Positions 13,522-19,444 of a DNA stretch of 31,834 nucleotides are shown in pieces (within the stretch, counting starts at the first letter, position 1; every line of letters begins with the position of its first letter). Made by a program: the position numbers and the translations under genes. Source of the stretch: Opitutales bacterium (GTDB lineage Bacteria > Verrucomicrobiota > Verrucomicrobiia > Opitutales > JAFGAQ01). Below the pieces are notes generated by a model. The model was not told the origin of the DNA, did no database searches, and saw nothing but the letters and a program-made list of their open reading frames with translations. The stretch is from contig JAQVLM010000002.1 in assembly GCA_028704125.1 (NCBI GenBank), forward strand, positions 1-31,834. The letters run 5' to 3'.

Positions 13522-14040
13522 CTAATCTTCCTTGATGATGAGGAGGCTCAGAATGGGTTTACCCCTTACTTTGAAAAGAAAGGTTTTTCTCACGCAGCCT
13601 GAGACCGGTTCAACCGATAGGCTCTTGCCCCTCAGAATGGAGGGGAGGGTGAGGGAGCACGGAAATCCGAACTGGCTGAGTTGGTTCTTGAACCCGCCGA
13701 TCGAAATATTGGTGAATTCACCGACCGCATCGTTGACGATATCGAGCGGATGATGGCCGCCATTCACCGGTTTAAGCATGCGCGAGGCAATGAAGTCTGC
13801 GGTTTCGTTCCCCATGAAGAGATACACAAATCCAAAGATATCACCGCTGAATCCGATGTTGGAGACGATCAAAGGGGTATCGTTGCCGAAGAGCTTCTCG
13901 ACTCCTGCGGCGACCGTCGGGGGTTCGGTCCAGGGTTCGAGTTTGATGGAAGAATGCAGCATCATCGTGAAAACATCCCGTAATGCCGCATTCATCATCG
14001 CCGCCAGTTCGCCGTATGAAATACTGAATGCTTGGGCCAT
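13522..14040 (-). CDS. cheX: CheX/CheC-family chemotaxis phosphatase
   Basis: 172 aa; IGFSGDIFG, DAVGEFTNISIGG (E-x2-N motif), LTLPSILRG. Confidence 0.85.
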   Translation of the reverse strand: MAQAFSISYGELAAMMNAALRDVFTMMLHSSIKLEPWTEPPTVAAGVEKLFGNDTPLIVSNIGFSGDIFGFVYLFMGNETADFIASRMLKPVNGGHHPLDIVNDAVGEFTNISIGGFKNQLSQFGFPCSLTLPSILRGKSLSVEPVSGCVRKTFLFKVRGKPILSLLIIKED

Positions 14041-14170: not shown

Positions 14171-15181
14171 TTATTCAGTTGGAATCTCTGAAAGGGTTCT
14201 CAGCACACGGGAGGCAATCTTGTAAGGATCGGCCATCGAATTCGGGCGACGGTCCTCAAGATAGCCCTTGTAATTGTTCTTCACAAAGGCGTGGGGCACC
14301 CGTACCGAGGCTCCGCGATCCGCGATGCCCCAGCTGAATTTGTCAATGGACTGGGTTTCATGCAGACCGGTCAGGCGCATATGGTTGTCAGGTCCATAAG
14401 CTGCGATGTGCTCATCGCGATACTTGTCGAAAGTGGCCATGAGCTTTTCGAAGTAGGGCTTACCACCCACTTCGCGCATGAACTTGGTCGAGAAGTTGCA
14501 GTGCATGCCCGAGCCGTTCCAGTCGCCCTGGAAGGGTTTGCAGTGCAGTTGCACCGTCACCTGGTAGCGTTCGCAAAGCCTGGACATGATGTAACGTGCG
14601 ACCCATACATCGTCTGCAGCCTTTCTGGAGCCTTTGCCGAAGATCTGGTATTCCCACTGGCCTTTGGCCACTTCGGCATTGATCCCTTCATGGTTGATGC
14701 CGGCTGCGAGGCAGAGCTCGAGGTGCTCTTCGACAATCTCGCGCGCGATATCGCCCACGTTTTCAAAGCCGACCCCGGTATAATACTGCCCCTGTGGTTT
14801 TGGGTATCCGTCTTCCGGCCATCCCAAAGGACGACCATTCTGCATGAGGAAGTATTCCTGTTCAAAGCCAAACCAGGCATCCGCATCTTCCGGAACGGTG
14901 TTGCGGTAGTTCGAAGGATGGGGATCCCCATTGGGCAGCAGGACCTCACACAGCACGATGAACCCGTTCTCCCTTGCTGCATCGGGATAGAGCGCCACAG
15001 GCTTCAGCATACAGTCGGAGCTGTGCCCTTCGGCCTGGCGGGTCGAGCTTCCGTCGAATCCCCACATCGGGCAATCCTCAATTGACTTTGGTTCGGCATC
15101 GGCAATCTTGGTCTTTCCACGCAGATTGGGCTCCGGAAGGTAGCCATCGAGCCAGATATACTCCAGTTTGAATTTAGGCAT
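14171..15181 (-). CDS. glnII: Glutamine synthetase type II (GSII)
   Basis: 336 aa (GSII size); KLEYIWLDG, WGFDGSST, GFEQEY, EGINAEV..GQWEYQI, WNGSGMHCNFS, RLTGLHET, DRGASVRVP, YLEDRRP. Confidence 0.93.
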   Translation of the reverse strand: MPKFKLEYIWLDGYLPEPNLRGKTKIADAEPKSIEDCPMWGFDGSSTRQAEGHSSDCMLKPVALYPDAARENGFIVLCEVLLPNGDPHPSNYRNTVPEDADAWFGFEQEYFLMQNGRPLGWPEDGYPKPQGQYYTGVGFENVGDIAREIVEEHLELCLAAGINHEGINAEVAKGQWEYQIFGKGSRKAADDVWVARYIMSRLCERYQVTVQLHCKPFQGDWNGSGMHCNFSTKFMREVGGKPYFEKLMATFDKYRDEHIAAYGPDNHMRLTGLHETQSIDKFSWGIADRGASVRVPHAFVKNNYKGYLEDRRPNSMADPYKIASRVLRTLSEIPTE

Positions 15182-15272
15182 AGTGTTTATTCGTTTAATG
15201 GTGTAAGGTTATAGCCTCACGTGCGAAAAGGTTGATCGGATGGGATTAACCTGATGAAGCTGCCATTACGTT

Positions 15273-15288
15273 AGCAACCCGCTTGCCA
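15273..15288 (-). promoter_or_regulatory. Sigma54 (-24/-12) promoter for glnII
   Basis: Minus strand TGGCAAGCGGGTTGCT: GG-N10-GC with TGGCA and TTGC consensus, about 90 nt upstream of glnII. Confidence 0.8.
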
Positions 15289-15348
15289 TTCAAACAAAAA
15301 AGCCGAAATTTGTATCCCGAAATTTCAAAATTACACTTTTGACCACCC

Positions 15349-15786
15349 ATGCATGACGTCAAAGACACTCAACGCTCGGTCGTAAAGGTAGGATACGACG
15401 GACGTGTTCACAAATACTACCGCGGACCAGCGGCAAAAGAGCGCTACGAGAATGAGGTGTGCATCCTTGAGTATCTTGAGCGCAAGGGTTGTTCCTTCGT
15501 TCCCCGCATACTGGAAAACCATCCCGGGGATCTGTACATCGTCACCACCAACTGTGGACACCGGGCGGACAACGTGAGTGAGGATACGCAAGTCCGCTTG
15601 TTCCGTGAACTCGAGCAGTATGGGGTAAAGCACGAGGACCCGTTTGTCCGCAACATCACCTACAACATGCAAACCGGTCGGTTTTGCATTATCGATTTTG
15701 AGTTTGCGACCAACCTTGAGACCGGGCTAGGCCTGCGTATTGAAGATGTCGGTGGCCGACCCAACCAGCCGCGAGTCACGCCATGA
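15349..15786 (+). CDS. Minimal protein-kinase-like (PKL fold) protein, 145 aa
   Basis: Ordered kinase-like motifs: RVHKYY (beta3 Lys), ERYENEV (alphaC Glu), KHEDPFVRNITY (HxDxxxxN), IIDFEFA (DFG-like). Stop overlaps the PP2C start (ATGA). Confidence 0.8.
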   Translation: MHDVKDTQRSVVKVGYDGRVHKYYRGPAAKERYENEVCILEYLERKGCSFVPRILENHPGDLYIVTTNCGHRADNVSEDTQVRLFRELEQYGVKHEDPFVRNITYNMQTGRFCIIDFEFATNLETGLGLRIEDVGGRPNQPRVTP

Positions 15787-16601
15787 GGTTACGCTGGTCC
15801 GGTATGACCCATCCGGGTCGCTTTCGACGCAACAACGAAGATGCTTTCCTTGGTCTGATCTTCGACGCCCGTGAAGTGCATTATCTCGGAAAGGAAGACG
15901 AGCTGGTGGTCGATGATGACCAGCAGTTCGTGTTTGCTGTAAGCGATGGCATGGGAGGGGCAAATGCGGGCGAATACGCCAGTCGCATAGCGGTGCAGAC
16001 GGTTACCAAGCGTCTGCCGGAGGCCTTGCGCACCGCCATGCACGGGGATGCCGTGGATGATGCAAGCATCCTGCGCAACCTTTACCAGAGTATCCATTTG
16101 ACCATGTTGGATATGGGAAGAGCCTATGAGGAATGCAATGGCATGGGCGCGACCCTGAGTATGGTTTGGATCAATCCCAAACGCCTTTTGTTTGCACACA
16201 TCGGGGATAGCCGCATTTACCATTTGCCGGCGGAGGGGCCCATGGTTCAAATCACGGAAGACCACTCCCATGTCGGCTGGTTGCTGCGGCAAGGCAGGAT
16301 CAATGAGCGCCAGGCGAAAATGCATCCATCCCGCAACATTCTGGATCAGGCTTTGGGGGGTGGCATCCGCAAAATCGACCCGCAAATCGGTTCGGTTGGC
16401 ATTGCTCCCGGCGATACCTTTGCTCTCTGTTCAGACGGAATATGTGACGGCCTTTTCGATCATGCGATCACCGATATCATCCGCAGTCCCCATCCGCGGA
16501 TGGCGGACAAGCGCGTGTCCCAGCGGCTGGTTGATGAGGCATTGGCGAATTCGGGGAAGGACAACCTCACGGCTTTGGTGGTTTCAGTTGTCGAGTTGTA
16601 G
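15783..16601 (+). CDS. PP2C/PPM-family Ser/Thr phosphatase (PrpC/Stp1-like)
   Basis: RRNNED, VSDGMGG, HIGDSRIY, LCSDG, GKDNLT. Confidence 0.93.
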   Translation: MRLRWSGMTHPGRFRRNNEDAFLGLIFDAREVHYLGKEDELVVDDDQQFVFAVSDGMGGANAGEYASRIAVQTVTKRLPEALRTAMHGDAVDDASILRNLYQSIHLTMLDMGRAYEECNGMGATLSMVWINPKRLLFAHIGDSRIYHLPAEGPMVQITEDHSHVGWLLRQGRINERQAKMHPSRNILDQALGGGIRKIDPQIGSVGIAPGDTFALCSDGICDGLFDHAITDIIRSPHPRMADKRVSQRLVDEALANSGKDNLTALVVSVVEL

Positions 16602-17050
16602 GAATTTTCTGTTCTTTGGCTTGGTCCATAACATAAGGCAGAGTGCTTCCCTGTGCAGTTCTGGACCAGATTCTATGATGCATCTCGTTTTTTTCGACAG
16701 ATTTGTACCCATTCCACGAAAGGCGGGTGTAATTGTAACAATTTGCATTTAAGCGTCCTGTTTCCAAATCCACTGATGATTGGATTTGCTGACTCTGATT
16801 TGGGCCCTTGTCATGAGATTGAGAGGAGTCCATCAGGCTCCATAGTGTTTTAGCCGTTTTTGCAGTACGGGTCGATTGGAACCACAAATTGGATGGAATA
16901 GTCGCGATGGATTACCAAAACACGCCAGTCGTTAATGCTTTCATTGAGGCCTGCCCGTTTGATCCGGCAGGCTAGGTCCGCACTCAAACCTACAAGACCC
17001 GGAGACCCAAAGAAAGATGGACTGGAATCCTTTTTCCCGTGTTAATCCCC

Positions 17051-17074
17051 GTAGCGGAACGCGTGAGTGTTCCG
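17051..17074 (+). repeat. GTAG-type REP hairpin, family A copy 1
   Basis: GTAG-CGGAACGC-GTGA-GTGTTCCG. Confidence 0.8.
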
Positions 17075-17185
17075 ATATTCGAGTTGTGATCGGGTCGGGC
17101 GTGCTGACCGGCAGTTAGTGTGAAGAATTCAAGAATCTTCACCACTAAGATCTGGCGGACACGAAGGGTGGAGTATGAGATTTTC

Positions 17186-17215
17186 AATCTGCGGAAATCT
17201 GCGCCATCTGCGGAT
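17186..17215. repeat. Short tandem ATCTGCG repeat
   Basis: aATCTGCGgaaATCTGCGccATCTGCGgat, three units. Confidence 0.7.
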
Positions 17216-17273
17216 GGAATCTTTCTCCAAGAATATCTACTCGCGCAGAGGTGCCAAGACGCAGAGGGAAGAG

Positions 17274-17301
17274 CGGCTCGGCGGGGACACGTCGCCCTCC
17301 C
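17274..17301 (-). repeat. REP-like element, reverse orientation (GGAG variant of GTAG)
   Basis: Minus strand GGGAGGGCGACGTGTCCCCGCCGAGCCG. Confidence 0.5.
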
Positions 17302-17359
17302 GGGTTCGGGGAATTTCAGATTTCGTGGCAATCCGTTCCCGTGAGATTGGCTGTTGTGG

Positions 17360-17385
17360 GTAGGGGTGAGCGTCCCCGCTCATCC
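17360..17385 (+). repeat. GTAG-type REP hairpin, family B
   Basis: GTAG-G-GGTGAGCG-TCCC-CGCTCATC-C. Confidence 0.65.
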
Positions 17386-17439
17386 GCAAGCGATTGGACG
17401 GCTAGCGTGGAGTATGGGTATAGAGGATGGCTGAAGTCA

Positions 17440-17564
17440 CCCCCTCCGGAAGATTGGAATTCTTGGTCTGTTGTTTTGCGCCAGCAAAACGTATGTGGCC
17501 CGAAGAACTTATAGCGAGCTAGGCGAGCGATGTTAATCATTCTTATCATTAACAACTTTCGCCC
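17440..17564. repeat. ~125-bp structured dispersed repeat, copy 1
   Basis: First 93 nt match 18622-18714 at 84/93 positions (hand alignment); looser similarity continues to TTCGCCC. Confidence 0.9.
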
Positions 17565-17678
17565 TTTGGGCTCACTAAGATCCGCTGCGCGGACGACGAT
17601 ACTCCTCGCAAGCTCGGATCAACAGGTTGGAAGAAGAATCTTTGCCACAAAAGATCACATAGACAACGGAGTTCTTCC

Positions 17679-17702
17679 GTAGCGGGACGCGTAAGCGTTC
17701 CG
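17679..17702 (+). repeat. GTAG-type REP hairpin, family A copy 2
   Basis: GTAG-CGGGACGC-GTAA-GCGTTCCG. Confidence 0.8.
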
Positions 17703-17788
17703 ACCCGGCGTTGTCGGATTGAAGAAGAAGAAATTCTCACGCAGAGACCCCAAGACCCCAAGTAAGATGGATCGGATGCATTTTCCCC

Positions 17789-17812
17789 GTAGCGGAACAC
17801 GTGAGTGTCCCG
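17789..17812 (+). repeat. GTAG-type REP hairpin, family A copy 3
   Basis: GTAG-CGGAACAC-GTGA-GTGTCCCG. Confidence 0.8.
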
Positions 17813-18165
17813 TCTTCCGTCTTGACGACAGATTCGCGCTTGCCAATCAAGTCGATAGACCGGATGTTTGCTCATCAAGGCCCGCTGGCCATGGCATTTG
17901 CTTGCTTCCGGAAACGAAAATGGCATAGTCTGAACCCGTCCCTCCCCGAATCTGTCCCCAGTTCATTCCCACCACTCGTTTGCTCATAACCCACACGTCG
18001 GAATCCTATACTATGTCCAGAGTCTGGTCAGTCTGCATCGACGAAAGCGCCACCGCAGCTTCTGGCGCTTCCTCCAAAAAAAGGGGAATAATTGGACTGA
18101 CCCGTTTTCTTGCAGGTTGGTATGGTATCGGGAATTGGAGAAGGACTGGCAGGAAACTGTTAAAC

Positions 18166-18357
18166 ATGAAAAAGAGAGTATTGATAGGTTACGTTTGTGT
18201 AGTATTGGGTAGTTATTTCGTTTCCCGATCTTCATATGCATCTAAGGATGACTTTGTTTGGCTAGCGTTTTCCGGCGTAATCTGTTACACGCTTGGAGGT
18301 GTATTGAGAGGGTTTTTAATCAAATCAAGAAGTGATGATGAGGATCAGCGTGAATAA
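18166..18357 (+). CDS. Small AT-rich two-TM hypothetical protein (63 aa)
   Basis: MKKRVLIGYVCVVLGSYFVSRSSYASKDDFVWLAFSGVICYTLGGVLRGFLIKSRSDDEDQRE; purine-rich RBS-like sequence upstream; 3' half of track ORF 17980-18357. Confidence 0.55.
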   Translation: MKKRVLIGYVCVVLGSYFVSRSSYASKDDFVWLAFSGVICYTLGGVLRGFLIKSRSDDEDQRE

Positions 18358-18476
18358 ATGTTACCACTGAAATTGACGTCATACATTCGCCCGATTTGGA
18401 ATCGTAGGCTTTGGGGGTGGATTCCGGATTGGGATCGTAATTTGCGCTCAATACGGTGGAAATAAATGGAGGTTTT

Positions 18477-18534
18477 CTCACGAAGGCACCAAGGCACGAA
18501 GGATGGGTTTCTTTGTGAGCTTGGCGCCTTGAGG
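18477..18534. repeat. Inverted pair of tandem-octamer elements (imperfect long hairpin)
   Basis: CACGAAGGCACCAAGGCACGAAG followed by CTTTGTGAGCTTGGCGCCTTGAGG (reverse complement CCTCAAGGCGCCAAGCTCACAAAG). Confidence 0.6.
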
Positions 18535-18621
18535 CGAAGCCGGGCGAGAGATCGAAATTTCTGGATGGGATTAGCAGGATGATGAAGAAGAAGAGGTTCC
18601 CGCGCGGAGGCGCGGAGATCG

Positions 18622-18745
18622 CCCCCTCCGGAAGATCGGAATCTTTAGTCTGTTGTTTTGCGCGAGCAAAACGTATGTGGCCCGAAGGGCTTATAGCGAG
18701 CTTTGCGAGCGATGATAAAGAATCTTTGATTCACAACGTTCGCCC
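18622..18745. repeat. ~125-bp structured dispersed repeat, copy 2
   Basis: Direct repeat of 17440-17564; contains palindromes TTTTGC-GCGA-GCAAAA and GCCC-GAA-GGGC. Confidence 0.9.
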
Positions 18746-18760
18746 AGCGGCTAAGAAGGC

Positions 18761-18782
18761 GCGGGCAGAATGCTCCCGCTAC
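18761..18782 (-). repeat. GTAG-type REP-like hairpin, reverse orientation
   Basis: Minus strand GTAG-CGGGAGCATTCTGCCCGC (imperfect stem). Confidence 0.55.
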
Positions 18783-18985
18783 TATGGGCAGCAGGATTGG
18801 AAGTAAAGGATTCTTCACCAAGCCCCCAAGGCCCGAGGATGGAAGAGAATGTTCCGAGTCGCAGGCGACATTTTACAATAGGCAGGATTGTCGTGGAATA
18901 TCCGTTGCGTCAGTCAGAATGGAACGGCCAACAAGGCGGTGATCTCTGCTCGGGGTGTCTGTGAGGTCCCTCGACGGTATCCGGC

Positions 18986-19444
18986 CTAGAGGATGAGGTT
19001 GAAGACTTCCTTGAGCTTTTTCTTGAGGTCGCGTGCGCTCAAATCTTTCTGGATGTAGTAGCGCGCCCCGGCTTTGATGCACTCCATCACGGTCTTCTTG
19101 TCGTTTTCGGTGGTGAGCATGATAATCCGGGCATCCCTGCGGGTGGCGCGGATCTCGCGGAGGGTATCAAGTCCGCTTTTTCTGGGAAGACGGTAGGCCA
19201 TGATTACGATGTCGAACTGGCCCATGACGTATTCGCGGTAACCGCTGATGCCATCCACTGCCTCAACCACCTTGGCCACGCCCAGAGCCTTGAGGATCGT
19301 CCGGTAGAGCAAGCGGAACGCTTCACTCTCTTCGATGAGGAGGATGGCGTTTGGAGTTTTCTGTTGATTGGGAGCCACTATGGGGAGGGGTGAATTCTGA
19401 TGTTGCGGGAACTCAGTATTTATGCACTCGATAAATGCGGGCAA
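18986..19444 (-). CDS. Single-domain CheY-like pseudo-receiver (phospho-Asp replaced by Ala)
   Basis: LLIEES, EAVDG, FDIVIMAYRLP, SGLDTL, IIMLT, YIQK. Start uncertain (ATG 19444 or a downstream GTG). Confidence 0.85.
   Translation of the reverse strand: MPAFIECINTEFPQHQNSPLPIVAPNQQKTPNAILLIEESEAFRLLYRTILKALGVAKVVEAVDGISGYREYVMGQFDIVIMAYRLPRKSGLDTLREIRATRRDARIIMLTTENDKKTVMECIKAGARYYIQKDLSARDLKKKLKEVFNLIL

Follow-up and report, generated by a model that had tools for sequence, protein, structure and literature searches.

A minimal protein-kinase-like protein and a PP2C phosphatase encoded beside glnII in Verrucomicrobiota: a candidate phospho-switch for type II glutamine synthetase

In a stretch of 31,834 nucleotides from an Opitutales genome (contig JAQVLM010000002.1, positions 1 to 31,834; hereafter the window), an operon encoding a 145-residue protein-kinase-like (PKL) protein, here called the mini-kinase, and a PP2C-type Ser/Thr phosphatase lies divergent from glnII, the gene for a type II glutamine synthetase (GSII). 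Glutamine synthetase (GS) is the entry of ammonium into biomass, and adenylylation of the type I enzyme (GSI) by GlnE is the textbook case of its control; we know of no covalent or other post-translational switch established for bacterial GSII. In our judgement the kinase/phosphatase module is very probably tied in function to GSII-dependent nitrogen assimilation, and we lean, with less assurance, towards the more specific reading that it constitutes a dedicated switch that would act on GSII itself.

The mini-kinase gene occupies positions 15349–15786 and the intact PP2C gene (272 aa) positions 15783–16601, both on the plus strand, and the stop codon of the first shares the tetranucleotide ATGA (15783–15786) with the start codon of the second, an arrangement typical of translational coupling. 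glnII (336 aa) lies on the minus strand at 14171–15181, and a single intergenic region of 167 bp (15182–15348) is common to glnII and the mini-kinase operon. Both the ATGA overlap and the divergent layout had been described in the first-pass annotation of this DNA and were found as described. The N-terminus of the mini-kinase is fixed by an in-frame TGA located 9 nt 5' of the ATG at 15349, so the open reading frame cannot be extended upstream. Since the PP2C begins normally, with the usual N-terminal RxxNED motif, the 145-aa frame is not a frameshifted fragment of a larger kinase.

The catalytic motifs of the PKL fold follow one another in the mini-kinase in the order that the same annotation had given, i.e. 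the beta3 Lys in VHK (K22), the alphaC Glu in ENE (E36), the catalytic loop HEDPFVRN (H95, D97 and N102, pattern HEDxxxxN) and DFE (residues 116–118) in place of DFG. The conserved core spans approximately residues 1–125, and the chain ends 27 residues past DFE, about ten conserved residues following that motif. K22, E36, H95, D97, N102 and D116 are each present in 172–178 of the 178 relatives with coverage of the region (172 for the Asp of HxD, the catalytic base), and a 26-sequence alignment of the family is invariant at K5, G15, D17, G18, K22, E36, H95, D97, R101, N102, D116, F117 and E118. As judged by this conservation, the presence of the catalytic residues is not due to chance.

The structural model agrees with the motifs. 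AlphaFold2 (AF2) predicted the mini-kinase with a mean predicted local distance difference test score (pLDDT) of 90.7 and a predicted template modelling score (pTM) of 0.84. The modelled elements are, in order, three N-terminal strands, alphaC, two strands, a hinge, one helix, the catalytic loop, two short strands and DFE, past which the model contains one short strand and a 4-residue helix and nothing more; an activation segment and helices equivalent to alphaF–alphaI are thus lacking in the model. A Foldseek search of the PDB returned 278 matches at E ≤ 1e-3, all of them PKL proteins, with E values from 1e-6 to 1e-4 for the best, among which Ark1 (8yv5, E 1e-6, 26% identity), Rio2, Bud32, the kinase domains of lanthipeptide synthetases, RNase L, ULK1 and OspG were leading. 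VIA-align gave Z scores of 10.6–12.7 for residues 1–126 against eukaryotic-type protein kinases (ePK), Rio, PRPK, LanKC, Ark1 and APH alike, and this flat profile favours no single family. Among the clusters of AFDB, the query retrieved its own family first, including a fused form of 402 aa, and then protein kinase domains. The lack of a PKL structural match had been named beforehand as an outcome that would speak against the kinase assignment; Foldseek, VIA-align and the AFDB clusters all produced such a match. Both the fold and the set of beta3 Lys, alphaC Glu, HxDxxxxN and DFG-like Asp therefore place the protein in the PKL superfamily.

With regard to its position within this superfamily, the mini-kinase fitted none of the families considered. 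No Pkinase (PF00069) match was obtained, which together with the single short helix after DFE and the end of the chain 27 residues beyond it sets the protein apart from Hanks-type kinases. The Pfam scores for APH (PF01636, 22.0 against a threshold of 23.2), Kdo kinase (PF06293, 18.1 against 21.3) and choline kinase (PF01633, 13.5 against 29) were all below threshold, and the model has no C-terminal helical substrate-binding subdomain, so that it belongs to none of these three families, even if some of its relatives carry a precomputed PF01636 match. The Bud32 model TIGR03724 (COG3642) gave 15.7 bits against a cut-off of 125, a score that excludes the protein from Bud32/PRPK. These sub-threshold matches (APH, Kdo, choline kinase and Bud32) were all confined to the catalytic loop. 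ArkI (AQ578) has DFE in common with the mini-kinase, which differs from it in its HED loop, in the lack of C-terminal helices, in an isoelectric point (pI) of about 6 and in a net charge of −3 for the core. A profile search of PDB sequences gave a best E value of 0.02, restricted to the catalytic loop of Cdc7, and did not retrieve Ark1, which indicates that the link of the mini-kinase to solved kinases is one of structure. Having failed the Hanks, Bud32, ArkI and APH tests, the mini-kinase represents an unclassified PKL family, for which neither Pfam nor NCBIfam was found to hold a dedicated model.

The family is large and compact. A search of 5.8 billion proteins gave 3928 relatives at E ≤ 1e-3, almost all of 134–150 aa and from Verrucomicrobiota, and in a library clustered at 50% identity the family comprised 268 clusters, from which phmmer did not extend to ordinary kinases. 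Public names are inconsistent: NCBI lists these proteins as 'serine/threonine protein phosphatase' and JGI as 'Bud32', the latter a consequence of the distant similarity seen with TIGR03724. One relative, from a Prosthecobacter metagenome-assembled genome (L073:5449–6438), forms the C-terminal part of a 329-aa open frame with no adjacent PP2C; Pfam gave no match for the 184 residues that precede it, which may be either an N-terminal extension or merely the product of an upstream in-frame start.

The second component of the module is a PP2C/PPM phosphatase, as judged by both profile matches (PF13672, 71.7 bits; PF00481, 51.9 bits) and metal-binding Asp motifs. The best model for the window protein is Stp1/IreP, with 184.7 bits, which is under the equivalog cut-off of 230 bits. 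Conservation among the module PP2Cs is at least 95% for the motifs NED (D20), DGMGG (D55, G56), D211/D218 and D260. To describe the coupling of the two genes we used 80 Verrucomicrobiota loci from one-per-species genomes, covering Opitutales, Limisphaerales, Verrucomicrobiales, Chthoniobacterales and others. A PP2C gene follows the mini-kinase immediately on its 3' side in 76 of the 79 loci with visible downstream DNA. The junctions in these 76 loci include 28 overlaps (12 of the 4-nt ATGA type), 39 gaps of at most 60 nt and five in-frame fusions; about 13 further cluster representatives elsewhere are likewise kinase–PP2C fusions, of approximately 400 aa with linkers of 15–25 residues, and in one genus the two are fused in all five sampled genomes. 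The AF2 model of a natural fusion reached a pLDDT of 93.9 and a pTM of 0.79, and the latter value suggests a fixed arrangement of the kinase and PP2C domains.

The divergent neighbour was glnII in 63 of the 78 loci in which it was visible, across several orders, with an intergenic distance typically of 150–250 bp. The window enzyme has the length and the Gln-synt_N and Gln-synt_C domains (Pfam) of a GSII, and its closest PDB sequences are GSII decamers (4bax, E 5e-94, followed by the yeast, human and maize enzymes). Its top NCBIfam match is GlnII, at 372.7 bits and thus under the equivalog cut-off of 500 bits, indicating a divergent GSII subtype. The same linkage was evident at the level of whole genomes. 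In a sample of 401 genomes of the phylum, 77 had the mini-kinase, 77 the PP2C ortholog (E ≤ 1e-40) and 84 glnII (E ≤ 1e-60). Within the class the three genes occur in the same 77 genomes, each genome having all three or none, and the tallies by family and genus are identical for the three (25 of 26, 27 of 35 and 3 of 31 genomes in three families, none of four and none of three in two genera); several genera in otherwise positive families lack all three. The association also survives rearrangement. In about nine genomes all three genes are kept though they lie on different contigs, and at two loci where glnII is not adjacent it is present elsewhere in the genome. In one genome (G348) the order is mini-kinase, PP2C and glnII on one strand, in two others (G081 and G327) the PP2C gene and glnII diverge and the kinase gene is located elsewhere, and at locus L060 (genome G401) glnII, the mini-kinase and PP2C are co-directional. 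The early expectation that homologs of the mini-kinase would be linked both to PP2C and to a nitrogen gene is thus borne out by adjacency and natural fusion on the one hand, and by the divergent glnII and the identical phyletic pattern on the other.

Further support for a connection with glnII came from genomes outside the class. Seven glnII-bearing genomes there have no mini-kinase, and their GSII is about 57% identical; in all seven, the gene immediately 5' of glnII, in the same orientation, encodes a full-length Hanks Ser/Thr kinase. These kinases (316–423 aa, PF00069) mostly have an apparent C-terminal hydrophobic anchor, and at one of the loci (L088) amtB is located downstream. No sequence relation between them and the mini-kinase was detectable (hhalign probability 1%). 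The idea that the mini-kinase is a recent truncation of these kinases was rejected on this ground, and the same value means that two unrelated kinases have been recruited beside glnII. Judged by sequence comparison, the Hanks kinases thus represent an independent convergence on a kinase beside this gene. In a second phylum, reached through L060, glnII was found in 16 of 201 genomes, and 15 of these 16 loci had no kinase within 1.5 kb, the exception being that of G401.

The first-pass annotation had also called glnII sigma54-driven, and the predicted promoter fits that description. The sequence TGGCAAGCGGGTTGC at 15274–15288, on the glnII strand (minus), is a predicted sigma-54 −24/−12 element (TGGCA-N6-TTGC) serving glnII and the only exact match in the window. 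It conforms to GG-N10-GC, 56 of 64 related loci have an element of this type 90–125 nt 5' of the ATG of glnII, and rpoN is present in the genome. The mini-kinase operon starts approximately 60 nt from the −24 box, so the enhancer region of glnII must coincide in part with its beginning, and the layout may allow reciprocal transcriptional control of glnII and the operon. A sigma-70-like promoter for the kinase operon was not found in the 167-bp region. In many Opitutaceae-type loci a motif, YTGGCAAG, recurs approximately 85 nt 5' of the −24 box (as read in the glnII orientation), close to the mini-kinase start, and may be an enhancer-binding site or a promoter element of the kinase operon; in the window, where the spacer is shorter, the motif is not apparent. 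Metatranscriptomes of related strains (four runs) yielded short contigs, mostly over glnII, one of them (15076–15241) inside the predicted glnII 5' untranslated region, and one contig (15363–15615) over the mini-kinase. These contigs lend weak support to expression, DNA carry-over being possible.

GSII appears to be a principal GS of this genome and to be without classical covalent control, because neither GlnE nor GSIII was found in the 86%-complete assembly and no GSI match exceeded its cut-off there. A GS-like open frame of 509 aa on another contig of the genome (G000 contig C286:3305–4432, covered by L089 and L090) scored 145 bits on the GSI model against a cut-off of 429, and may represent a divergent member of the GS family and not a canonical GlnA.

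Taken at its most specific, our preferred reading is as follows. The 145-aa protein would be a catalytically competent, extremely reduced PKL enzyme, and together with its co-translated and in some lineages fused PP2C it would form a writer/eraser pair dedicated to the divergently encoded GSII. The kinase would phosphorylate GSII on Ser/Thr and thereby alter its activity, and the PP2C would remove the phosphate. The outcome would be a fast covalent control of ammonium assimilation in a bacterium that lacks GlnE, added to transcriptional control of glnII of the sigma-54/NtrC type. It is genomic linkage that points to GSII as the target; we infer that the mini-kinase may transfer phosphate, that GSII may receive it and that the activity may change in one direction or the other.

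Several observations weigh against this reading. A comparison of 63 module-linked, seven Hanks-kinase-linked and 14 kinase-free GSII sequences revealed no Ser/Thr specific to the kinase-linked clades: every conserved Ser/Thr falls in general GSII motifs, and the residues found to be clade-specific were G143 (an insertion of one residue), K173, Y243, H267 and H297. No phosphosite can therefore be proposed. We do not regard the missing lineage-specific Ser/Thr as strong evidence against GSII as the target, because AceK modifies a universally conserved active-site Ser. In addition, divergently transcribed neighbours often regulate expression rather than the enzyme, and the structural neighbours of the mini-kinase include an RNA kinase and small-molecule kinases. 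One genome of the second phylum (G544) has a 71%-identical glnII and no mini-kinase, which indicates that GSII can work without it, and in a few lineages (four loci) the mini-kinase is present without an adjacent PP2C. Finally, relatives do not count as independent observations and genome G126 has withheld bases, so that independent events, co-losses included, are fewer than the perfect co-occurrence would suggest.

Among the alternatives, the one that fares best holds that the pair belongs to nitrogen signalling with a substrate other than GSII, such as P-II (GlnB/GlnK, at Ser49), an NtrC-type enhancer-binding protein or another protein, so that glnII or GSII would be controlled indirectly; we consider it rather unlikely. 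The module and the sigma-54 promoter share a short intergenic region, a position typical of regulators. The P-II of this genome is encoded in an amtB-glnK-type operon (L109:607–2583, G000 contig C72) and its T-loop is of the cyanobacterial type, YRGSEY, with Ser49 and Tyr51. Phosphorylated cyanobacterial P-II is dephosphorylated by the PP2C PphA, a precedent that counts for this alternative, and to our knowledge the kinase of cyanobacterial P-II is still not known. In one genome (G330), moreover, P-II is encoded 1.6 kb past the PP2C gene. This T-loop is, however, general in the order with or without the module: Ser49 was present in 38 of 38 P-II genes read from module-bearing genomes and in 17 of 17 canonical ones read from module-free genomes. 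Unlike glnII, which co-varies with the module perfectly, P-II thus shows no co-variation with it, nor is P-II among its conserved neighbours. Ser49 of P-II was accordingly rejected as the target, and for a regulator as substrate the adjacency of Hanks kinases and glnII in sister lineages is an adverse point, since it directs attention to glnII itself.

In a second alternative the mini-kinase would not function as a protein kinase. It would then be an ATP-binding or ATPase regulatory subunit, similar to Bud32, that senses energy and gates the PP2C, while another kinase writes the phosphate. Such a role would suit the absence of all peptide-binding elements of ePKs (activation segment, APE, alphaF–alphaI), the presence of the mainly ATPase Bud32/PRPK and Rio kinases among the best structural matches, the obligate pairing or fusion with PP2C and the fixed domain arrangement suggested by the fusion model. 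The conservation of the HxD Asp, N102 and D116 speaks instead for chemistry at the gamma-phosphate, yet ATPases keep these residues too. Lineages that have the kinase beside glnII and no adjacent PP2C are difficult to reconcile with a subunit of the phosphatase, and minimal kinases such as OspG do phosphorylate proteins. On balance we hold this alternative to be improbable.

The weakest alternative, a non-protein substrate (RNA, as for ArkI, or a small molecule, as for APH, Kdo and choline kinases) with the PP2C and glnII linkage reflecting co-regulation only, draws on the RNA kinase Ark1 as top Foldseek match, on the DFE that ArkI also has for DFG (PMC9095486) and on the fact that the sole Pfam matches are the sub-threshold ones, but is very unlikely, since the defining ArkI features are missing (HED rather than HGQ, no alpha7 YKR helix, an acidic protein), the helical subdomain of APH-type kinases is absent, VIA-align scores of about 12 favour none of these families and a protein phosphatase as obligate or fused partner points to a phosphoprotein.

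Returning to the switch on GSII, a bolder version of it can be put forward tentatively, as something we would not expect to hold in full. The module would be the first covalent on/off switch of a bacterial GSII and the counterpart of GlnE; its kinase, lacking a C-lobe, would work only in a complex in which the missing scaffold and the substrate-docking surface come from the PP2C domain or the GSII decamer, and sister lineages would use the unrelated Hanks kinase.

Apart from the trio of mini-kinase, PP2C and glnII, the surroundings vary. No further neighbour of the trio is conserved in the 80 related loci. A CheX/CheC-like CheY-P phosphatase gene (172 aa, 13522–14040, minus strand) located directly downstream of glnII in the window is not conserved in other loci, and a gene for a gamma-glutamyl cyclotransferase-like protein (GGACT/AIG2, PF06094) is found 3' of PP2C in 26 of the 80 loci (e.g. 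L049:4198–4569) and not at that position in the window. The approximately 2.4 kb 3' of PP2C (16602–19000) contain no long convincing open reading frame and no Rfam match, and a search of the whole window for RNA elements with Rfam gave no match.

Literature searches yielded no paper in which a Ser/Thr kinase is connected with glnII or GSII in Verrucomicrobiota, nor one that describes the mini-kinase family. Together with the missing Pfam and NCBIfam models, this agrees with the initial impression that the family has no characterised member. The three-way phyletic identity including PP2C, the convergence of Hanks kinases on glnII, the second-phylum control, the test of P-II Ser49 and the positional conservation of the sigma-54 box are new in this analysis. 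If the proposed switch is real, the module gives bacterial GSII a post-translational control comparable to that of GSI by GlnE. With about 125 residues, the conserved core is also below the size of the minimal kinases matched in the PDB (Ark1, OspG and NleH, approximately 170 aa), and the mini-kinase would test how little of the PKL fold suffices for catalysis and how a partner could take over substrate recognition. Members of the family, which number in the thousands and are misnamed in public databases, come from Verrucomicrobiota of aquatic, soil, wastewater and gut habitats.

Among known systems, the operon pairs of Hanks kinase and PP2C (PknB/PstP, PrkC/PrpC and Stk1/Stp1) resemble the module in that writer and eraser are encoded in one tightly coupled operon, and the best model for the window PP2C, Stp1/IreP, is in line with this likeness. 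The mini-kinase differs from the kinases of these pairs in size (145 aa versus about 270 aa plus sensor domains) and in lacking the Gly-rich GxGxxG loop, activation segment, APE, alphaF–alphaI, transmembrane segment and PASTA domains. The module, moreover, has the kinase first and is tied to one metabolic gene, not to cell-wall or division loci. AceK is a PKL-fold isocitrate dehydrogenase kinase/phosphatase of approximately 570 aa, with its phosphatase activity in the kinase active site. It is similar in combining a kinase and the opposing phosphatase for one central metabolic enzyme, encoded beside genes of the pathway, and the fusions of about 400 aa described here would likewise be bifunctional polypeptides. 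In the module, by contrast, a PP2C domain of its own serves as eraser, GSII is the presumed target and the kinase is about a quarter as large as AceK. GlnE acting on GSI is alike in the proposed role, a reversible covalent modification of GS that follows nitrogen status, and differs in chemistry (Tyr adenylylation), in enzyme family and in the type of GS.

ArkI/Ark1 (AQ578, COG2112), the archaeal tRNA 2'-kinase whose eraser is KptA, has an HGQ catalytic loop, DFE, C-lobe helices including the basic alpha7 YKR helix and a large basic RNA-binding patch (PMC9095486). It shares with the mini-kinase a small PKL fold, DFE for DFG and membership of a writer/eraser system, and was its best Foldseek match, whereas the mini-kinase has a HED loop, no C-lobe YKR helices and an acidic character. 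OspG/NleH, Bud32/PRPK and Rio, finally, are of 170–290 aa, keep part of the C-lobe and act in the host ubiquitin system, KEOPS and ribosome biogenesis, respectively. They match the mini-kinase structurally with Z scores of 10.7–12.4 (OspG with a template modelling score of 0.50 by target), and like it they are truncated PKL proteins without an activation segment; they depend on a bound partner (E2~Ub, Cgi121/Kae1).

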